Shown piece after piece: positions 3,830 through 62,204 of a stretch of 64,000 nt of DNA. The position numbers were made by a program, and so were the translations under genes. The notes beneath the pieces are model-generated. The model saw only the letters and a program-made list of their open reading frames with translations. It was not told the DNA's origin and made no database searches. Each line of letters opens with the position of its first letter. The stretch's first letter is position 1. Source of the DNA: a phage; sequence record OZ336096.1. One strand, 5' to 3'.

Positions 3830-4930
3830 TTACTCATAATCCCTAATAACTAGCCCTACAGGAAACTGTAAAGAACCCTTACGAGTCATCTTCTGGAACT
3901 GAACAGTTAAAGGTTTCCCGATAAACTCTTCAGGATGCTCAGCAAGATACTGTTTCTTCTCATGAGTAGTCTTCCATGATACATCTACAAAGACGTTAGG
4001 AAGAGTCTCTACAACGAACTTGCCATGACCACGCTTATCAGTCTTTACACCAGTCACTTTAAACTCTTCAGTGTGCATCTTCTTGTGCTTAATCAAGAAG
4101 TATGAACGGTGACAGCACTCATAGAAGGAGTCTTCAGAGATTGAACGGTACATTGCACCTTCAAACTGAGCTTCAACCCACTTATCATGGGCTTCATCAA
4201 ACTCTTCCCAAGAATTTACACGGATAGTCTGTACAGGAACCACTCTACAGGTATCCCCAAGCTCAACAATAGGTGAACTATCAATAACTTCACGACGCTC
4301 AGGCCAAGATTTTGAATTGTCACAGATATCATACCAGTAGAATTTAAGAAGGTGACGGTCTGGATTGTCAGCATTCTTAATCATAGACACAATATCTTCT
4401 AAGTCCTGCCCATGAGCATAAATCTCACCATCAAAGTCTTCAACTTGTGGATGTAATTTAAGCAACAAAAGCAAATCTGGAATTAGTTCTGCTGGAACGT
4501 TGTAAACAGTATTCTCACGAGAATAAGCTGTGAAACTAACTGTATCAGCATCTCTTGAAATTCTACAACGTACACCATCAAGTTTTGGTTGAGCATCAGC
4601 AGGGAACTTCAAATACTTTGCATGGCTAACCTTTGCAGCATCATGAGCAAGCTGTACACCTACCTTCTCAGTATTCTGTGCAGACTCTTTTGTATAAGCA
4701 TAACCTTTACGGTCAACTTGCTTTTTATACTTAGCAGCAACTTCAAAGAGAGCTTGCTGTTCAGCGTTACGCTCATTCTTTTTACCGATGTTTTTAGGTT
4801 CTGCTGTATACTCTTCAAACATCATCTTGCCATTTTCTTTACCGTAGGTTGTAATAACTTTGTCACCTACAGCAACACATGACCAAACGTTAAAAGAGCC
4901 ATCTTTATTTTGTTTGTACAGTATTGTCAT
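3830..4930 (-). CDS. ATP-dependent DNA ligase
   Basis: 366 aa; nucleotidyltransferase motif I KLDGVR, motif III FDGEIY, motif IV EGAMYR, motif V LIKHKK; T7-ligase-like size. Confidence 0.75.
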   Translation of the reverse strand: MTILYKQNKDGSFNVWSCVAVGDKVITTYGKENGKMMFEEYTAEPKNIGKKNERNAEQQALFEVAAKYKKQVDRKGYAYTKESAQNTEKVGVQLAHDAAKVSHAKYLKFPADAQPKLDGVRCRISRDADTVSFTAYSRENTVYNVPAELIPDLLLLLKLHPQVEDFDGEIYAHGQDLEDIVSMIKNADNPDRHLLKFYWYDICDNSKSWPERREVIDSSPIVELGDTCRVVPVQTIRVNSWEEFDEAHDKWVEAQFEGAMYRSISEDSFYECCHRSYFLIKHKKMHTEEFKVTGVKTDKRGHGKFVVETLPNVFVDVSWKTTHEKKQYLAEHPEEFIGKPLTVQFQKMTRKGSLQFPVGLVIRDYE

Positions 4931-6895: not shown

Positions 6896-7160
6896 TACAT
6901 CTGGTCAATACACTCGCAAGGTGTACCAGTTCTCTTATGAACTTCTCCGCATTTCTACGGAGTGTCGGACTATATCACGTAGTAGTAATACTACCGTTGC
7001 ACTTGGGAATGGTCATTAGCTTACCACCCTACTCTACTCAGTTCATACATTAAGTATGCTTTTCGATAGTCTCTGAACGTTCCTCTTAAGAGGCTTCGCT
7101 GCTGATTACCATATCTTTTAAGACTTAGGCTTCCAGCAATTCACAACGTTTTACATGCGC
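6896..7160 (-). other. intervening sequence in DNA polymerase gene, putative small ORF-less group I intron (boundaries approximate)
   Basis: Upstream ORF stops at 7125 just after ..RKKSKNGIYAS (start of motif B); motif resumes at ~6898; RNA-sense sequence has GATATAGTCCGACACTCCGTAGAAATGCGGAG resembling the P9 region of the nrdD intron. Confidence 0.5.
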
Positions 7161-9308
7161 CACTGACGCATAGATGCCATTTTTGCTCTTCTTACGACCT
7201 TTTGTAATCTCGTGAAGAAGTTCCTCATCCTGTGTCTCCCTACAACGAACAATATCTTCTTCCTTGTTCAGACCAAAGTAAATACTGTTCAGTGTATGCG
7301 CATCAGTCCCTGTGTAGACTTCATAGAGGTCGTTCTCAGCATCATAACGAAGATACTTGTCAGTTTCTGGATTAAGATACTTATCGAGATGCTTGCAATA
7401 GTATCTTCCATCCTCTTGCTTAGTGAACTCTACTGACTCTTTACCCTCAGTTACTGCTTTAGTGAAGTCTTCATCACCCATAAAGTTACAAAGAAGAACT
7501 AGCTGGGCTGAGTTCTGGTCAACGGAAACGATGTTAGTCCCCTCCTCACAAATCCACACCTCCCTCATAGGTGCTCCATAGACAGCAGCACCAGACGGTA
7601 CGTTTACAATACCATATTGCGTCATACGTCCAGTTGAAGTACCAAACACCATTGCACCAGCACTAAGGCGACCATCTGGACGAATCTGGTTCAACCAACC
7701 TTTTTCATCATCCTTTGAGTTCTCAATAGTCCTGCGTCGGTGCATCAAAGTATAGTACTTAGCAATCTTCTGTCCAAGCTCACCTTCAATCGTATCATAA
7801 GATGATTCAGTAAGTTTTGGTGAAGTACGGATTAAGCAAGGCTCAAGCAAATCTGTGTACTTCTTCACAGACCAGTTATGTTCAATGTACTGGACACCTT
7901 CATGTTCAACATAACTCAAGCCGCACCGTTCAACCATCTCCTGCCACTTAGGATGCTTTGTAATCATCTTTTTGTTGTCTTTGAAACGACAAACTTTGAC
8001 AGGGCGACCATCTGAATCTTTCTTGTAGTTCCAGTCATCTGGAATCCAGCCAACTGATTTCAAGTAGTCTTTAACAACTGCTACTTGAGTCATACGAGAA
8101 ACTTCAAACTCAATTGGTGTATATGGTGCATCAATCAATCCTGTGTAGCGACTTGACTCCAGTCCAAAGTGGTTAACAACATGACTGTTATAGTACTTCA
8201 CAGTTTTAACTGTTTTTACTGGCTTCCAGTCTTTGCATTTCTTACCAATCTTTGCGTTCAACTCATTGCAAATTGCACGAGCATCCTTCATTGCTACAAA
8301 ACCCTCCTTGTACTCTTCACCAGTTACAGAGTTGGTTGGCGTATAGCAATTTCTCTTTTCAATGTTAAAAATCTTTGTAGTTGGCTTACCAAATGGTTTG
8401 ATTTCGTATGTCTGCATCTCACCGTTACGTACCTGCTGACGATACTTTGTCTTAGGGTACTTGGTAATCCTCTTCAGTCCATCTGCATGACCAAATGTTT
8501 CAACATACTCATTCCAAGCTTTTGCAAACTCTTCTCCAGTGACTTTACCTTTGGTCTTAATAGTTGGAGGAAGATGTGGTTCAACCTCTGAAGCAAGCTC
8601 ATTAGTCAACTTGTCAAGTTCCTTTACATGGAACTCCATAAGTTCTTTATCAGCTTTCCAACCATTGATAGCTTGTTGACTCATCCAGAAAGATGTTTCT
8701 TTAGCTCGCATGTAGGTTTCATAAGTGTCTATGCCACACTTCTTAAGCTTGAGATACTCATTATCAAGTGCCCGTTTAGTTTTGGCGTTAATACGGATAT
8801 CTTCTACAACACGAGTGAAGATTTCTGCATTCCACACACCCCAATGTTCAATCTCTGGTTTACGAACACCAACACGAGCACCCCATGCAGCCAAACCATG
8901 AGCACCTTTATAACCCTTTGGAGTTGGTCTATCCATCCACTGAACACGAGACTGGATAAGAGAATCCTGAAAGAAGTTACTCCACGGTTTACACTTTGGA
9001 TTATCAAAGTTCCATAAATCAGGTGCAATGTGGTTGAAAACCCACCAGTCATAACCGAGACCATTATGGATGCAAAGACGTTTTGCCTTTAACGCAAACT
9101 CAACACCTTCACGCAAACCACCCTTAATGTACTTGGTATACTTGTGACCGAGGATAGGCTCGTCTGTAAAGACCCATACAGGTGGCTCTTCATCGTCAGA
9201 TTTATAGTCTGCAAAGGCCATTACGTGAACTTTAGTGAACTCAAGGAGTAAACCATCAGTTTCTGTATCACCAACCAAATGTAAGTTTTTAAAATCTACG
9301 TTTTCCAT
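7125..9308 (-). CDS. DNA polymerase (family A) with 3'-5' exonuclease, N-terminal exon/fragment
   Basis: Exo I motif LVGDTETDGLL; motif A VSVDQNSAQLVLL; GTDAHTLNSIYFG; start chosen at MENVDF (9308) with GAGGGA RBS; ORF track gives 7125-9338. Confidence 0.8.
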   Translation of the reverse strand: MENVDFKNLHLVGDTETDGLLLEFTKVHVMAFADYKSDDEEPPVWVFTDEPILGHKYTKYIKGGLREGVEFALKAKRLCIHNGLGYDWWVFNHIAPDLWNFDNPKCKPWSNFFQDSLIQSRVQWMDRPTPKGYKGAHGLAAWGARVGVRKPEIEHWGVWNAEIFTRVVEDIRINAKTKRALDNEYLKLKKCGIDTYETYMRAKETSFWMSQQAINGWKADKELMEFHVKELDKLTNELASEVEPHLPPTIKTKGKVTGEEFAKAWNEYVETFGHADGLKRITKYPKTKYRQQVRNGEMQTYEIKPFGKPTTKIFNIEKRNCYTPTNSVTGEEYKEGFVAMKDARAICNELNAKIGKKCKDWKPVKTVKTVKYYNSHVVNHFGLESSRYTGLIDAPYTPIEFEVSRMTQVAVVKDYLKSVGWIPDDWNYKKDSDGRPVKVCRFKDNKKMITKHPKWQEMVERCGLSYVEHEGVQYIEHNWSVKKYTDLLEPCLIRTSPKLTESSYDTIEGELGQKIAKYYTLMHRRRTIENSKDDEKGWLNQIRPDGRLSAGAMVFGTSTGRMTQYGIVNVPSGAAVYGAPMREVWICEEGTNIVSVDQNSAQLVLLCNFMGDEDFTKAVTEGKESVEFTKQEDGRYYCKHLDKYLNPETDKYLRYDAENDLYEVYTGTDAHTLNSIYFGLNKEEDIVRCRETQDEELLHEITKGRKKSKNGIYASVAHVKRCELLEA

Positions 9309-22243: not shown

Positions 22244-22442
22244 ACGCATTTGGGAAGGTTTGGTTGTTGATGCACCAGCTATTGTGATTGGTATGCTTAT
22301 TGTTAACCTATTTACTGACTTTGAACAAGGTTTGTTGTTTGGAGTCATGTTACTATGGGTTATATTTGAAATCCTAGAGATACATCTGGGCATCACCGAA
22401 AAGTTAAGAAAACTCTTTGTGAAGTTTTCTAAAAAGATTTAA
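22236..22442 (+). CDS. small membrane protein (hypothetical)
   Basis: 68 aa, hydrophobic. Confidence 0.4.
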   Translation: MLKRIWEGLVVDAPAIVIGMLIVNLFTDFEQGLLFGVMLLWVIFEILEIHLGITEKLRKLFVKFSKKI

Positions 22443-22490: not shown

Positions 22491-23687
22491 ATGAACAAAG
22501 TACAAATTATTAAAAAGAATGGCTCACTTGAAGAACCGGATATCAAAAAAGTTTTAGTAGCAGTCACAAAGTCAGCTAACAGGGTTGGTTATAAAGAGCT
22601 TCCACCAGATGTTACTCAAGCCCTTGAGTCAGCATTTATGAGGATTCTGGTAAAATCTACTAAGCAGAATAATTTACTCGTTTCAGTAAATGATATTCAC
22701 AGTATTGTTGAAGGTGCTTTGGCAGAGGTCAATCACGAGATTTATGAGTCTTACTCAACATACAGAAATTACCGTAAAGAGGTTGCTCAAAATTGGGACG
22801 AACTCTACCAGAAGACTAAAGATACACTCTTCTTAGGTGACCGTGAAAATGCTAACTTTGACAGCAGTTTAATTTCTACGAAAGGTTCAATTATCCGTGG
22901 TTACCTGACTAAAGAAATCTTTAAACAGTATCATCTAACACCAGAGGAACTTGAAGCCATTGAGAAAGGCTTTATCTATATCCACGATTTGAGAGACCTG
23001 ATTTTTGGTGGTATTAACTGTTGCCTGTTTGACATTGGTAAAGTACTAAAAGGTGGCTTTGAAATGTCCGGCATTGAGTACTGTGAACCTAAATCTGTAC
23101 TGTCAGCGTTGCAGGTTATCGGTGACGTAGTACTTTCAGCAACTGCACAGCAATTTGGTGGATTTACTTTAGCAGAGATTGATAAGGTACTTGTACCGTA
23201 TGCTAAGAAGTCTCTACGCTATCATGCTGAGAAAGCAGCATCTTACGGTATTCCTAAAGAACATTACCATAATTATGTCATGGAGCAGCTACAGATTGAA
23301 TTAACTCAAGGTTTCCAGTCACTAGAGATGAAGCTAAATACTGTACCTTGTAGCCGTGGTGATTTCGCATTCACAACTTTAACATTTGGTTTACTTGACT
23401 CAGACATGTCTAATGAAGACAACCGACTACAATACATGATTGCAAACACCATTCTTGATGTTCGCATGAATGGACAAGGTAAGAGCAAGAAGCCTGTTGT
23501 ATTCCCTAAACTGGTTTATATTCATGACCAGAAGAGACACGATGAGAATATCTGTCAAGGTCAACTGTACAGTAAAGCTATTGAGTGTTGCTCTAAAGCT
23601 ATGTATCCAGATTTCTTAAGTGTATCTGGTCATGGTGCTGTAGCAGAGGCTTTTGAGCGTTCTGGCAAGGTAATTTCACCGATGGGT
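22491..23687 (+). CDS. nrdD: anaerobic ribonucleoside-triphosphate reductase, exon 1
   Basis: N-terminal ATP-cone; ORF ends ..VISPMG followed by in-frame TAA that I interpret as the first codon of the intron. Confidence 0.8.
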
Positions 23688-24003
23688 TAACAGGCTCTAT
23701 AGCTCATCTAAAACGTGCCTAAACAGGGAAACTCTACAGATGTAGACAATCCTGTGCTAAATGATGTACGATGTAAGAAACTATACAACATAGGAGTCTT
23801 ACATGCCAAATAACTTCGAATATGAGTTTGAATACATCTAAATGCCGAACGACTAACCGTGATGAATGTAGCGGTGTAGGGTCAAGCGACTCGAAATGGT
23901 ACGCTACTTAGAAATAAGTAGAAGATATAGTCTGGACTTACTGGCGACAGTAAGCAGCTTGAATAAAGCGGGGTAAGCTTAGCGAACTTACCTGAACAAC
24001 AAG
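23688..24003 (+). other. group I intron (ORF-less) interrupting nrdD
   Basis: 316 nt between exons; exon 1 ends in T, intron ends in G; contains GACAATCCTGTGCTAAAT, GGGTCAAGCGACTCGAAATGG, AGATATAGTCTGG, GGGGTAAG..CCTGAACAACAAG, which closely resemble core elements of the T4 td/nrdD introns as I remember them. Confidence 0.75.
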
Positions 24004-58605: not shown

Positions 58606-58682
58606 CTCTGTTTAGCTCAGCTTGGTAGAGCGTTCCGTTTGGGGCGGTAAGGCCGGAGGTTCAAGTCCTCCAACAGAGACCA
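58606..58682 (+). tRNA. tRNA-Pro (anticodon UGG)
   Basis: 7 bp acceptor CTCTGTT/AACAGAG, D-arm TAGCTCAGCTTGGTAGAGC, T-loop GGTTCAAGTCC, CCA encoded; hand-folded. Confidence 0.6.
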
Positions 58683-59270: not shown

Positions 59271-59493
59271 AATTATAATAAGTATTTCAAGATGATGTTT
59301 TGAGAGGGCTATTTAGCCCCTCCCTTAAAGAGTTCTTACGAGTATTCTTTAAAGGAGCAGAAGACCAAATTCAGCAAGTACGTATGATATTTTCAAGCCA
59401 ATTTAATTTTGAAAAATTTAAAACTTGGTCTGGCTCAACAGATTTACAGAAGACCGTTTACAGCAAAACTTAAACAATCTATTTCTCCGGTAA

Positions 59494-59556
59494 AGAAAAG
59501 GCGAAGGTTCGATTCCTTCACTCGGCAGATGTCGAGTTGGTGTAATGGTAGCACTT
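59494..59556 (+). pseudogene. tRNA-like halves in permuted order (3' half then 5' half)
   Basis: GGCGAAGGTTCGATTCCTTCACTCGGCAG (T-arm + 3' acceptor) immediately followed by GTCGAGTTGGTGTAATGGTAGCAC (5' acceptor + D-arm); the two acceptor strands are complementary to each other. Confidence 0.35.
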
Positions 59557-59727
59557 AAGATGATAAACAACGGTCTGGTAATTATCTTTGTAGATAAGTT
59601 ATTAAGCTTACCTGTGAGTATGCGACCACAAAGGGTGAAAGGGTAAATTCTAGATTTAAACCCAACAAGGCACATCGCTACAGACCTTAAGCAAGTCTGG
59701 GTAGCTTATCTACAAAGATAATTTAAT

Positions 59728-59961: not shown

Positions 59962-60298
59962 ATTTCAATAAAGTTGTTGACATTGAGATGTGACCACTTT
60001 TTAGTAACTAAAATACTTCATAATATGTATAATTCAAACACCAATACATGAGCGTTAGACGTAACACAATGTGGGGAAATTTGTTGTACATATTCTGAAT
60101 AGTTTTCGTTGCGTAGCGTCTATTTTGCAAATTTAAAATAAATGCAAACGACAATGTTTTTCTGGCAGTAGCTTGATAGGCTAAACACCAGTGAGGTCTT
60201 CCAATCCCTCATCAAAGAATTTGGCGTACTAGCCCACGGTATGATTAATAAAGTGGGCATCTTTAAGGGCTTTCTAAGAGAGTCTTTAAAGATAATTA

Positions 60299-60380
60299 CG
60301 GGGCGTATCTCAGCTGTCTTCTAAACAGCCGTTAACCGAGTAAGTGGAGTATGCGGGTTCGAGTCCTGCCGCCTCGACCA
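60299..60380 (+). tRNA. atypical tRNA-like gene, possibly tRNA-Arg (UCU)
   Basis: Acceptor CGGGGCG/CGCCTCG + ACCA, T-loop GGTTCGAGTCC, perfect anticodon hairpin GCTGT-CTTCTAA-ACAGC, but no recognisable D-arm and a long segment after the anticodon arm. Confidence 0.35.
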
Positions 60381-60523
60381 ATTTAGTTAGCAGATTACTT
60401 AGACGACCTAAGCGGGTCTTCCTGTAGGGAGGTGGTCTGTATCTCATGTTTTCCAGAACATGTAAATAATCTGAGAAGAAGCTTGACAGTGTTGAGATAA
60501 TACGGTAAGCTTCGAATTATAGT

Positions 60524-60606
60524 ATGGGACGATGTTAAGACTCTAAGGCATGAGCAACGGCTTCCAACACCGTTTCAAAGGGGTTCAACTCCTCCGTCCC
60601 ATGCCA
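60524..60606 (+). tRNA. atypical tRNA-like gene, possibly tRNA-Trp (CCA)
   Basis: Acceptor ATGGGAC/GTCCCAT + GCCA, T-loop GGTTCAACTCC; anticodon region AACGG-CTTCCAACA-CCGTT allows a 7 nt loop (CCA) or a 9 nt loop; extra nucleotides in the D region. Confidence 0.4.
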
Positions 60607-60619
60607 AAGTCTTATTAGG

Positions 60620-60709
60620 GGTAGGTAGCGGCTAATGGTAGCCAAACTGTCTTGAAAACAGTTGCCACTGTAGAGATACGGTGAGGGTTCGACTCCTTTA
60701 CTTACCGCC
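60620..60709 (+). tRNA. tRNA-Ser (UGA), long variable arm
   Basis: AC stem ACTGT/ACAGT, loop CTTGAAA, long variable arm, T-loop GGTTCGACTCC; 3' end GCC (CCA not fully encoded). Confidence 0.65.
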
Positions 60710-60862
60710 TAATAAGATTTAAAGCCAAGCTTCATTCGGATGTTGCTTTGGTATCCCTCGTGTTGTCGAACACACTAATAAAGCACCTAGTAGGTGTCAC
60801 GGAGAAGAGATAATATCAAGCTCTCCAAAGGTCCTAGTCACCGGATTAAACAAGACTATGCA

Positions 60863-60884
60863 AAGACCTTTTTAGGTCTTTTTA
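60863..60884 (+). terminator. intrinsic terminator
   Basis: AAGACCTTTTTAGGTCTT hairpin followed by TTT. Confidence 0.5.
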
Positions 60885-60962
60885 GAGGGCTTCTAAGGTT
60901 ATTGCAGCTTGTTGTGGAACCTTGTTGCTTAGGTTCTTAGAAGTTCTCTAAAAAGATTTAAT

Positions 60963-61040
60963 GGGAGATTGACGGTAATTGGTAAACCTACCATCCTTAG
61001 AAGTTGGTGTTTGAGGGTTCGAATCCCTTGTCTCCTACCA
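60963..61040 (+). tRNA. tRNA with UAG anticodon (Leu-type), short variable arm
   Basis: Acceptor GGGAGAT/GTCTCCT, loop CTTAGAA, T-loop GGTTCGAATCC, discriminator A. Confidence 0.5.
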
Positions 61041-61370: not shown

Positions 61371-61465
61371 ATTCAGAGGTCAAGTGAAAGACCGCTGGTG
61401 TCAACTGAAGACCGTAACAAATTCCACGGAGTTGAGTTAGCGGCACAACTTCAGACCTCTTCCAT

Positions 61466-61619: not shown

Positions 61620-61638
61620 ATTTTAAGAGGCTATTTAG

Positions 61639-62196
61639 ATGAGATATTTGAAGTATGCTTCATGGATTTTCCTAGCTTTACTAGAACCATTTGCAGCAAC
61701 CCTAGCAGTCATCTTAGCACCTTTCGTAGTTCCATTCTACAGTGAGAAGAAAGGACATCTACCTTTTGGATTCAGATGGATGGAGACCTATGACAACCCG
61801 ATTGATGGTGATGAAGGCCACGTTAAAAGATGGGCTAAGGTTAGAAAGATTGGTAAGCTGGGTGTCTACATGCAGAGAGTTGGATGGCTCTGGAGAAACA
61901 AAGCTTATAACTTCTCTTACCATGTATTAGGAAGAGATGTAAAAGATGTTACTAAGTGGAAAGGTAATATCAACGTAAGTTCTGACCCTGAAGATAATCA
62001 GACTGGTTATCTCCTAATGTGGAACAGTAATGCTTGGGGATTATTCGCTTTTATCCCATCAATTAAAGTCTTTGGTAAACAGTTTTACTGGAGAATTTAT
62101 ATTGGATGGAAACTAAAAAGTGTTGTCCCAGAAGAAAGAGCATTCTCAAGGGGAAGAGTTATGTTGGCATTCTTTATTCATCCACTGAGAAAGTAA
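61639..62196 (+). CDS. hypothetical membrane-anchored protein embedded in the tRNA cluster
   Basis: 185 aa ORF with AAGAGG RBS; N-terminal hydrophobic helix. Confidence 0.5.
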   Translation: MRYLKYASWIFLALLEPFAATLAVILAPFVVPFYSEKKGHLPFGFRWMETYDNPIDGDEGHVKRWAKVRKIGKLGVYMQRVGWLWRNKAYNFSYHVLGRDVKDVTKWKGNINVSSDPEDNQTGYLLMWNSNAWGLFAFIPSIKVFGKQFYWRIYIGWKLKSVVPEERAFSRGRVMLAFFIHPLRK

Positions 62197-62204
62197 AGAT
62201 TTAA

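Follow-up and report, generated by a model that had tools for sequence, protein, structure and literature searches.

Comparison with its homologues shows the spacer between tRNA-Ser and tRNA-Leu in the tRNA gene cluster of the phage sequence record OZ336096.1 (positions 60710-60962; hereafter, the Ser-Leu spacer or element) to behave as a conserved, structured, non-coding element that is read from the + strand and belongs to the tRNA transcription unit. Throughout, the window is the whole 64,000-nucleotide (nt) stretch of this record, from the first letter of which all coordinates are counted. Judged by its sequence, the window comes from a Felix O1-like phage of the genus Felixounavirus (Ounavirinae), with positions 60380-61000 matching Salmonella, Escherichia, and Shigella Felixounavirus phages at 96-98% identity. 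An initial annotation of the stretch had proposed a candidate small RNA between tRNA-Ser and the next tRNA. A function as a non-coding RNA is indeed supported, since the element is conserved at the level of tRNAs, since its variation includes compensatory and wobble changes specific to one strand, and since tests for coding failed. As for what this RNA does, we give roughly even chances to the reading that the spacer yields a stable small RNA processed from the tRNA precursor, akin to the species I and II RNAs of phage T4, with a core that would bind a conserved factor.

ARAGORN identified 24 tRNA genes in the window, all lying on the + strand between positions 58606 and 63556, and the junctions between tRNAs in this cluster mostly comprise 1-8 nt. 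On the + strand, the element is bounded upstream by tRNA-Ser(UGA) (60620-60709; ARAGORN; Rfam tRNA model, 33 bits) and downstream by tRNA-Leu(UAG) (60963-61040; ARAGORN and Rfam). Beyond the element come five tRNAs and then another non-tRNA spacer, and more tRNAs are found further on in the cluster. The initial annotation had given the element a length of some 150 nt and an end at position 60884. The stretch without tRNA is, however, 253 nt long, and a long hairpin (60882-60951) extends beyond that end. The same annotation had stated that no tRNA fold is present, and this was borne out, as no tRNA was found between tRNA-Ser and tRNA-Leu by ARAGORN, nor by Rfam at gathering score or at E < 10, with no acceptor stem, T arm, or cloverleaf remnant being detected by either. 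The Rfam scan that had been proposed as a check was run with Rfam 15 (4227 models) and returned no family in the spacer at gathering threshold and nothing relevant on the + strand at E < 10. The matches seen at E < 10 were plant or animal microRNA-precursor models on the long hairpin, all far below threshold, together with one chance antisense match. Likewise, a consensus scan revealed no promoter-like site in 60710-60962. The conserved TTGCTT at the apex of the long hairpin, paired with TAAAAA or TACAAA, was considered as a promoter by scan and by eye and rejected as a poor match in which the T of the -10 element is missing.

When the spacer alone was used as query in a blastn search of 50,697 phage records, 254 were found to carry the element, at 76-98% identity. 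These correspond to Felix O1-type phages of Escherichia, Salmonella, Shigella, and Citrobacter, plus two mislabelled records. Across the genera Felixounavirus, Mooglevirus, and Suspvirus, from which 17 annotated loci were examined together with loci from IMG/VR and metagenomes, the element was present in all relatives retrieved. A conservation profile, in which the window was compared with eight Mooglevirus and Suspvirus genomes in bins of 20 nt, revealed 95-99% identity over 60780-60860, i.e., the level of the best-conserved tRNAs, as compared with 31-79% in the flanks (66-69% in the 5' hairpin H1 and 31% at the apex of the long hairpin) and 41-81% in several true tRNAs (Met, Ile, and Leu).

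Searches with a profile hidden Markov model (HMM) showed the element to be present in a single copy in the window. A corresponding search for paralogues in the window, in the Erwinia phage phiEa21-4, at other loci of its genus, Kolesnikvirus, in the Pseudomonas phage PAK_P3, and in the phage contig L124 returned nothing other than the element itself. No copy was found in 185,579 bacterial and archaeal species, each represented by one genome, nor was any match obtained in 5,426 E. coli genomes at E ≤ 10. Scans of IMG/VR with three motifs of the core revealed Ounavirinae-sized contigs and chance 15-mers only. In a metagenome scan that relied on the end of tRNA-Ser and the adjoining leader as bait, the core was present in every tRNA-Ser-linked match, and one clearly divergent homologue was obtained, namely, L085, found on an 80.9-kb contig of no more than 79% identity to any phage record.

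The anatomy of the element was read from alignments of 38-41 unique homologue sequences and comprises, in order and on the + strand, a leader, the hairpin H1, a pyrimidine-rich single strand, the hairpin H2, an A-rich linker, the core hairpins H3, H4, and H5, a further hairpin that carries a run of U residues (here termed the T-hairpin), and the long hairpin. The A/U-rich leader UAAUAAGAUUUAA (60710-60722) lies directly 3' of tRNA-Ser, is nearly invariant among 41 unique homologues, and is presumed to be an endonucleolytic processing site, probably of the RNase E type. A motif akin to it, AAAGAUUUAAU, stands before tRNA-Leu and other tRNAs of the cluster. H1 (60724-60752) is a two-tier 5' hairpin that differs in sequence from lineage to lineage while keeping its shape, with at least six unrelated sequence types each forming two stems, outer and inner, separated by an internal loop (folding free energy, -7.3 to -13.1 kcal/mol). 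H2 (60760-60773; GUGUU-GUCG-AACAC) corresponds to the internal hairpin GTGTTGTCGAACAC pointed out in the initial annotation and is conserved in relatives as CGUGUA-UUGKCG-UACACG (CGTGTA-TTGKCG-TACACG in the DNA), of which the window carries a variant with a 2-nt deletion. Its stem is paired in 93-99% of alignment cells.

Within the core, H3 (60783-60797; GCACCU-AGU-AGGUGU) and H4 (60801-60826; GGAGA...UCUCC, with an inner GAU/AUC stem) are both paired in 100% of cells, with variation in H4 being confined, apart from its closing pair, to the loop, where A/G substitutions are seen and where the homologue L060 has lost 1 nt. H5 (60834-60860) is formed by CUAGUC and GACUA(U)G around a conserved 14-nt loop, ACCGGAUUAAACAA. 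Examination of the core by eye for a K-turn, a T-loop, or mimicry of an anticodon loop yielded nothing convincing, and a pseudoknot between GGAU of the H5 loop and AUCC between H1 and H2 was rejected, given that the AUCC segment is not conserved. The T-hairpin (60862-60881; AAAGACC-loop-GGUCUUU, with the U-run at 60879-60883) has a conserved stem and a loop that varies in length as well as sequence. The long hairpin (60882-60951) has a 17-base pair (bp) stem that is paired in 96-100% of cells and a replaceable apex containing the invariant UUGUUGCU (60922-60929). In an alternative form, it is extended to 27 bp (60872-60961; 96.9% of cells paired) by pairing of 60872-60881 with 60952-60961. The extension takes in both the U-run and the leader of tRNA-Leu, is mutually exclusive with the T-hairpin, and brings the helix to within one base of the 5' end of tRNA-Leu. 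The long hairpin is a candidate site for a double-strand-specific RNase of the RNase III type, or a candidate insulating helix.

Support for the fold and for the strand on which it forms came from both energies and covariation. Relative to shuffled sequences, the region of the initial annotation (60710-60884) folds with a z-score of -2.0, and the whole spacer, which includes the long hairpin, with one of -4.0. For the core alone, z-scores of -2.2 on the + strand and -1.1 on the - strand were calculated. In an alignment of 41 sequences, standard pairs were found in 99.1% of 2,024 pair cells, as compared to 35-51% when the 3' partners were slid by one to three columns as a control. Upon addition of L085, this value came to 98.4%, and eight pairs were seen to have changed on both sides, as compared to 2.6 ± 1.1 in shuffled alignments, none of 500 of which reached eight. 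Seven of these eight pairs lie in the long hairpin and one in H5 (60838:60855, U-A in most sequences and C-G in L085). One-sided changes were all of the wobble type, and included G·U to A-U at 60783:60797 and, in L085, A-U to G·U at 60785:60795 of H3, changes yielding G·U in the stem of H2, G-C to G·U at the closing pair of H4 in phage Moogle, A-U to G·U in the T-hairpin, and several in the long hairpin. The long hairpin holds five G·U pairs. Because these would be A·C mismatches on the opposite strand, the molecule that folds is taken to be the + strand RNA.

The initial annotation had described the element as ending in a clean intrinsic terminator, AAGACCTTTTTAGGTCTTTTT, which lies at 60863-60883 within the T-hairpin. 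The hairpin itself proved real, with a conserved stem of 7-8 bp that includes three G-C pairs (-5.9 to -9.3 kcal/mol), and it is the minimum-energy fold of an RNA ending at the U-run in six of the six lineages tested, by 4-7 kcal/mol. As a terminator, on the other hand, it is not clean. Where such a signal should present at least five to six U right after the stem, this run is weak, as it counts only five U and as three of these could pair with the AAA on the 5' side of the hairpin, and L085 reads UUUGU where the other sequences have the run. A consensus terminator scan did not call the hairpin, and the published list of 17 Felix O1 terminators does not include it. Compared with the free energies of those terminators (-9.2 to -21.8), its own is at the weak end. 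At best, then, the T-hairpin is a weak and leaky terminator, and it may also serve as a 3'-protecting hairpin. Since five tRNA genes follow and the spacer ahead of them contains no promoter-like site, most polymerases would be expected to read through.

In the minimum-energy fold of the full spacer, GGUCUUUUUAGAG pairs with CUCUAAAAAGAUU, such that the long hairpin is extended to 27 bp with the U-run inside, a form with a predicted advantage of 2.4-7.5 kcal/mol over the T-hairpin in four lineages. The pair 60882:60951 is U-A in sequences of the Felix type, U·C in those of the Moogle type, and G-C in L085, variation that supports the 27-bp extension. The T-hairpin and the extended conformer were found to fit the sequence variation equally well.

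Were the spacer to give rise to a stable small RNA, the following course can be proposed. As the element has no promoter of its own, it would be transcribed together with the tRNAs, starting either at a conserved promoter at 59977 or at others that lie upstream of it. The T-hairpin would fold first on the nascent chain and may halt some polymerases, while RNA resulting from read-through would refold into the 27-bp helix and yield the downstream tRNAs. Release would rely on the enzymes that mature the flanking tRNAs, with cuts made in the A/U-rich leader by an endonuclease and at the start of tRNA-Leu by RNase P, and a further cut by a double-strand-specific RNase in the long helix is probable. 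The RNA so released would be some 150-240 nt long, with its 5' end guarded by H1 and its 3' end by the T-hairpin or by a stub of the long hairpin. The invariant core would be the working part of the molecule and would most likely bind a host or phage factor involved in translation or RNA processing, rather than an mRNA.

Several observations weigh against this proposal. Searches of the literature revealed no study of transcriptomes or small RNAs in Felix O1-like phages, nor did the collections searched contain expression data for them, and the size, ends, and stability of the RNA are thus deduced rather than measured. Complementarity of the element to other parts of the 64-kb window did not exceed chance, and there was no match in E. 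coli genomes. (Matches of 14-15 nt at 22428 represent a direct repeat of the A/U-rich leader, found there beside an ordinary terminator.) Within the core, a single pair changed on both sides, and this in one metagenomic sequence, L085. Because most core pairs never vary, the evidence that the alignments provide for the fold of the core is neutral. A relative, the Erwinia phage phiEa21-4 (Kolesnikvirus), lacks the module, which is as such not essential to the subfamily. Finally, the hairpins can be explained equally well by a purely cis-acting role.

Such a role would make of the spacer punctuation only, that is, a processing and attenuation cassette of the tRNA operon, the hairpins of which would guide RNase cleavage, insulate tRNA folding, and determine the share of transcription that arrives at the downstream tRNAs, with no trans-acting RNA being produced. 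In agreement with this idea, every non-tRNA module of the cluster has at its end a helix of 16 bp or more, the 3' strand of which lies against the next tRNA (59580-59724 before tRNA-Lys, 60259-60293 before an Arg-like gene, and 60872-60961 before tRNA-Leu). The mutual exclusion of the T-hairpin and the extended long helix, the lack of a promoter within the spacer, and the ability of phiEa21-4 to do without the module are also as expected of cis-acting punctuation. For a cassette of this kind, however, there is no need to keep all positions of an 80-nt stretch free of variation when H1 and the apex of the long hairpin drift freely, and most junctions of the cluster, being only 1-8 nt long, make do with no such cassette. 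A solely cis-acting element, the strongest of the rival readings, accordingly strikes us as possible yet on balance unlikely.

A more elaborate version of attenuation, in which the core would act in the manner of a riboswitch, sensing a ligand or factor and so selecting between the T-hairpin and read-through into tRNA-Leu, appears improbable. A domain of high conservation that precedes a hairpin and its U-run is the arrangement one would look for in such a conditional terminator, and GACC at 60865-60868 could pair either with GGUY at 60830-60833 or with GGUC at 60875-60878. Still, the alternative helix comprises just 3-4 bp and is, in all lineages, less favourable than the T-hairpin form by 4-7 kcal/mol, the U-run counts just five residues and is interrupted (UUUGU) in L085, and no riboswitch class of Rfam was matched.

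The chances that conservation here is imposed on the DNA, with the region serving as the target of a homing endonuclease, as a recombination junction, or as a promoter, seem slight. It is true that mosaic breakpoints were located at the edges of the core, and that genes encoding HNH endonucleases lie at several junctions of the cluster in different phages. Strand-specific changes that preserve G·U pairs nonetheless point to RNA, there is no promoter consensus, and the HNH gene of phage mistaenkt has its insertion site in the 5' portion of tRNA-Leu, outside the element. As side observations, the HNH homing-endonuclease genes occupy differing cluster junctions in Felix O1 (L001), mistaenkt (L006), Sl26 (L009), and Sf19 (L015), and the mistaenkt insertion duplicates the first 11 nt of tRNA-Leu, just past the long hairpin.

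That the region corresponds to a small protein gene is very improbable. The statement in the initial annotation that the spacer contains no open reading frame (ORF) did not hold to the letter, as ORFs of 21, 22, and 48 amino acids exist mechanically in the Ser-Leu region and as the annotation of Felix O1 lists ORF46 here, starting inside tRNA-Ser and matching PHROG 36337. None of these is credible. The 2-nt deletion that the window carries in H2 disrupts the frame of ORF46, and the ORFs found in the spacer in the window matched no PHROG or Pfam family, nor was a ribosome-binding site for any of them seen by eye. In the GTG-initiated frame that runs over the core (48 amino acids; 60794-60940), relatives differ by about 11 non-synonymous and three synonymous changes, phage ESh22 contains a premature stop, and loop insertions or deletions of 1 and 2 nt shift the frame, resulting in a different C-terminus in every lineage. 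Moreover, the same DNA is annotated with differing ORFs, on both strands, in different records. Based on these sequence comparisons, the Ser-Leu spacer is rejected as a protein-coding gene. Lastly, that the element is a decayed tRNA or a neutral linked spacer is close to negligible in probability, since despite the presence of several atypical or pseudo-tRNAs in the cluster, it retains no remnant of an acceptor stem, T arm, or cloverleaf and is, according to the conservation profile, more conserved than several bona fide tRNAs.

The initial annotation had further raised the possibility that a second unannotated gap, at 59962-60298, holds another such element. This was confirmed, in that the gap contains a promoter and a structured RNA that encodes a peptide tag in the manner of transfer-messenger RNA (tmRNA). 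The promoter, a sigma-70 type site on the + strand (TTGACA-N17-TTTAGT; 59977-60005), lies directly after tRNA-Ile and is conserved across genera, with the -10 element reading TATAGT in most relatives and the weaker TTTAGT in the window. It is identical to the predicted promoter P45 of Felix O1 (PMC3185647), and the corresponding site of phiEa21-4 reads TTGACA-N17-TAATCT. Alignment revealed that in the window this promoter is separated from the tag RNA by a hairpin-forming insertion of some 89 nt (60009-60098, + strand; fold of -21.3 kcal/mol) that includes TGTATAAT, is found in only some Felixounaviruses (the window, Felix O1, SP3, and KEP3), and occurs in a single copy in the window.

The tag RNA itself (60100-60293, + strand; about 200 nt; z-score of -4.6) resembles the mRNA-like domain of tmRNA. 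Here, AAAAUAAAU is followed by GCA AAC GAC AAU GUU UUU CUG GCA GUA GCU UGA UAG, such that a resume codon GCA at 60144 opens the tag ANDNVFLAVA (60144-60173) and two stops, UGA and UAG, close it (60174-60179). Covarying hairpins follow at 60191-60212 and 60233-60258, with three double compensatory changes in the post-ORF hairpin, and a terminal 16-bp hairpin spans 60259-60293. Across four lineages, the tag conforms to ANDxxFLAVA, with changes being mostly synonymous. In phiEa21-4, where it reads ANDAQFLAVA followed by two stops, four codon changes are synonymous and two non-synonymous, and ANDNAFLAVA and ANDEQFLAVA are found in other lineages. The tag thus behaves like a translated sequence. 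ANDEQFLAVA, followed by a stop, is encoded by L124 (IMGVR_UViG_3300011904_000028; 8460-8700), a G+C-richer phage contig in which a diverged tag RNA comes right after a strong terminator. As no tRNA gene was found within 11.6 kb of the tag RNA on this contig, the tag RNA family is not tied to the tRNA clusters of the Ounavirinae.

The tag of E. coli tmRNA is ANDENYALAA. The phage RNA shares with tmRNA the A/U-rich AAAAUAAAU, the GCA resume codon, a 10-codon tag of the form AND...LAVA, two stops located in the loop of a hairpin, and, following the ORF, a hairpin that covaries. It differs in having its own sigma-70 promoter, in having no adjoining tRNA-like domain, and in scoring below threshold in Rfam. 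Specifically, alignments to the resume region, tag, and flanking hairpins were obtained with the tmRNA (16.3 bits), tmRNA_permuted (20.3 bits), and beta_tmRNA (14-17 bits) models, against gathering thresholds of 47-84. At its default settings, ARAGORN called no tmRNA in the window, with the tag surfacing only at a relaxed threshold, among false positives. In phage Moogle, the same defaults returned a "permuted tmRNA" with this tag, spanning three tRNA genes and drawing on part of tRNA-Lys as the 5' domain, and this call accounts for the single-line mentions of ssrA in the literature for Moogle and Felix O1 (PMC4319497; PMC4392139). Judged by these comparisons, the gap holds the mRNA-like half of a tmRNA, maintained by selection, and no tRNA-like half adjoining it.

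Two genes nearby are candidate tRNA-like partners of the tag RNA, namely, one without a D arm at 60298-60380 and a permuted one at 59470-59560. The former, designated an atypical Arg-type gene in the initial annotation, lies on the + strand, was missed by ARAGORN, and scores 31 bits with the Rfam tRNA model. It has the anticodon UCU, a 22-nt variable region, and an anticodon stem that covaries (CUGU/ACAG in the window, CGGU/ACCG in Felix O1), and its acceptor stem presents G3·U70, A73, and an encoded CCA. Together, G3·U70, A73, and CCA direct charging with alanine, and tmRNA carries them too. Most relatives have an ordinary tRNA-Arg(UCU) at this position, with the G3·U70/A73/CCA form occurring in some phages only.

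The second gene belongs to a region, 59470-59727, with a circularly permuted tRNA-like layout, in which the T arm and 3' acceptor strand (59495-59527) precede the 5' acceptor strand and D arm (59531-59555). Downstream of these lies a domain of some 170 nt, whose closing helix measures about 20 bp and stops immediately short of tRNA-Lys. The Moogle counterpart of the permuted gene (L052) has a CCA encoded at the end of its upstream half, and its two acceptor strands are fully complementary over 7 bp. In phiEa21-4, an unpermuted tRNA-like RNA of 160 nt with a similar 3' end lies just upstream of the tag RNA (L072, 3878-4037).

Further features were noted elsewhere in the cluster. The spacer at 60381-60516 is conserved (73-100% identity across genera) and structured (z-score of -3.4) and holds TTGACA-N17-TAAGCT, and its motif GGAGGUGGUCUGUAUCUC with accompanying hairpin recurs, with a different hairpin sequence, in phiEa21-4 (L072, about 4415-4450). 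This is followed at 60517-60610 by a conserved tRNA-like gene that was missed by ARAGORN and that is annotated as tRNA-OTHER or as a pseudo-tRNA in some records. In its product, the acceptor stem would be long, the T loop would read UUCAACU, and the anticodon loop would comprise 9 nt and contain CCA (Trp-like). The spacer between tRNA-Thr and tRNA-Val (61371-61465; 89-100% conserved; z-score of -3.0) contains a domain closed by AGAGGUC...GACCUCU, followed by UCCA, and is possibly another non-tRNA or tRNA-like RNA. At 61620-62204, the window is without the tRNA-Arg(ACG) that relatives have between tRNA-Leu(CAA) and a conserved ORF of 185 amino acids (61639-62196), the equivalent of Felix O1 ORF48. 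Outside the cluster, two group I introns scored above the Rfam gathering threshold, at 6945-7177 (- strand; 64.5 bits) and 23604-23954 (+ strand; 52.7 bits). In the 2010 Felix O1 genome paper, introns were stated to be absent.

Felix O1 and its relatives are classic Salmonella-typing phages that are now widely used in therapy and biocontrol, and yet their tRNA clusters are annotated merely as tRNAs plus shifting "hypothetical proteins." Based on the present comparisons, conserved structured RNAs are encoded by at least one spacer of the cluster, and probably by four or five. Spurious ORFs such as ORF46 (PHROG 36337) can accordingly leave the annotation, and an RNA family absent from Rfam is defined. 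The tag RNA poses the question of whether a phage engages in trans-translation with a tag of its own. One could go further and speculate that the Ser-Leu RNA, the tag RNA, the D-armless tRNA-like RNA, and the permuted tRNA-like gene make up a phage RNA toolkit directed at the host ribosome or at ribosome rescue, in which the core would represent a new class of RNA that binds a translation or RNA quality-control factor and the tag RNA would be part of a split or trans-assembled tmRNA, but we consider this doubtful. The Ser-Leu element also offers a second tractable case of the puzzle presented by the species I and II RNAs of T4, namely, why phages retain non-tRNA RNAs in tRNA operons. To our knowledge, the function of the T4 RNAs is still not known.

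Of the systems with which the Ser-Leu element can be compared, the RNase III hairpins of phage T7 bear on its 3' part. These are long, near-perfect duplexes that lie between the units of a polycistronic phage transcript and that contain a characteristic internal loop. The long helix of the Ser-Leu element, with its 17-27 bp and seven covarying pairs, is similarly a nearly continuous duplex of the length (about 20 bp or more) expected of such sites, and may be cleaved. Unlike the T7 sites, the helix is continuous save for one U·C or U·A position.

A closer parallel in terms of position is provided by ncRNA2 of Pseudomonas phage PAK_P3, which lies between tRNA-Tyr and tRNA-Gln, is abundant and processed, has no start site of its own, and was confirmed by Northern blot (PMC10914365). 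As is true of the Ser-Leu element, ncRNA2 is thus found between two tRNA genes. It is, however, an oversized tRNA-like RNA with an acceptor stem, a T arm containing GGTTCGATTCC, and CCCA, none of which is seen in the Ser-Leu element, and no homology between ncRNA2 and either the core or the element as a whole was found. In E. coli, 3'ETS-leuZ is an RNA of about 50 nt that ends with a terminator hairpin and a U-run. It serves as a functional small RNA sponge and is cut from the spacer of the glyW-cysT-leuZ tRNA precursor (PMC7154689). Whereas 3'ETS-leuZ is a 3' external spacer at the end of an operon, the Ser-Leu element is internal, 3-5 times longer, and made up of multiple hairpins.

The species I and II RNAs of T4 are processed from a 1.75-kb tRNA precursor (PMC2330249). 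The Ser-Leu element is like them in being a non-tRNA RNA that lies inside a phage tRNA cluster and on the strand of the tRNAs, as set by its G·U pairs. It is unlike them in sequence, as a blastn search in distant mode of all phage records returned Felix O1-type phages only, and in what lies downstream, as transcription in T4 stops after species I, whereas here five tRNAs follow at once. The Ser-Leu element is therefore filed as what is, in effect, a new RNA family of the kind to which it comes closest, the stable non-tRNA RNAs of phage tRNA clusters.

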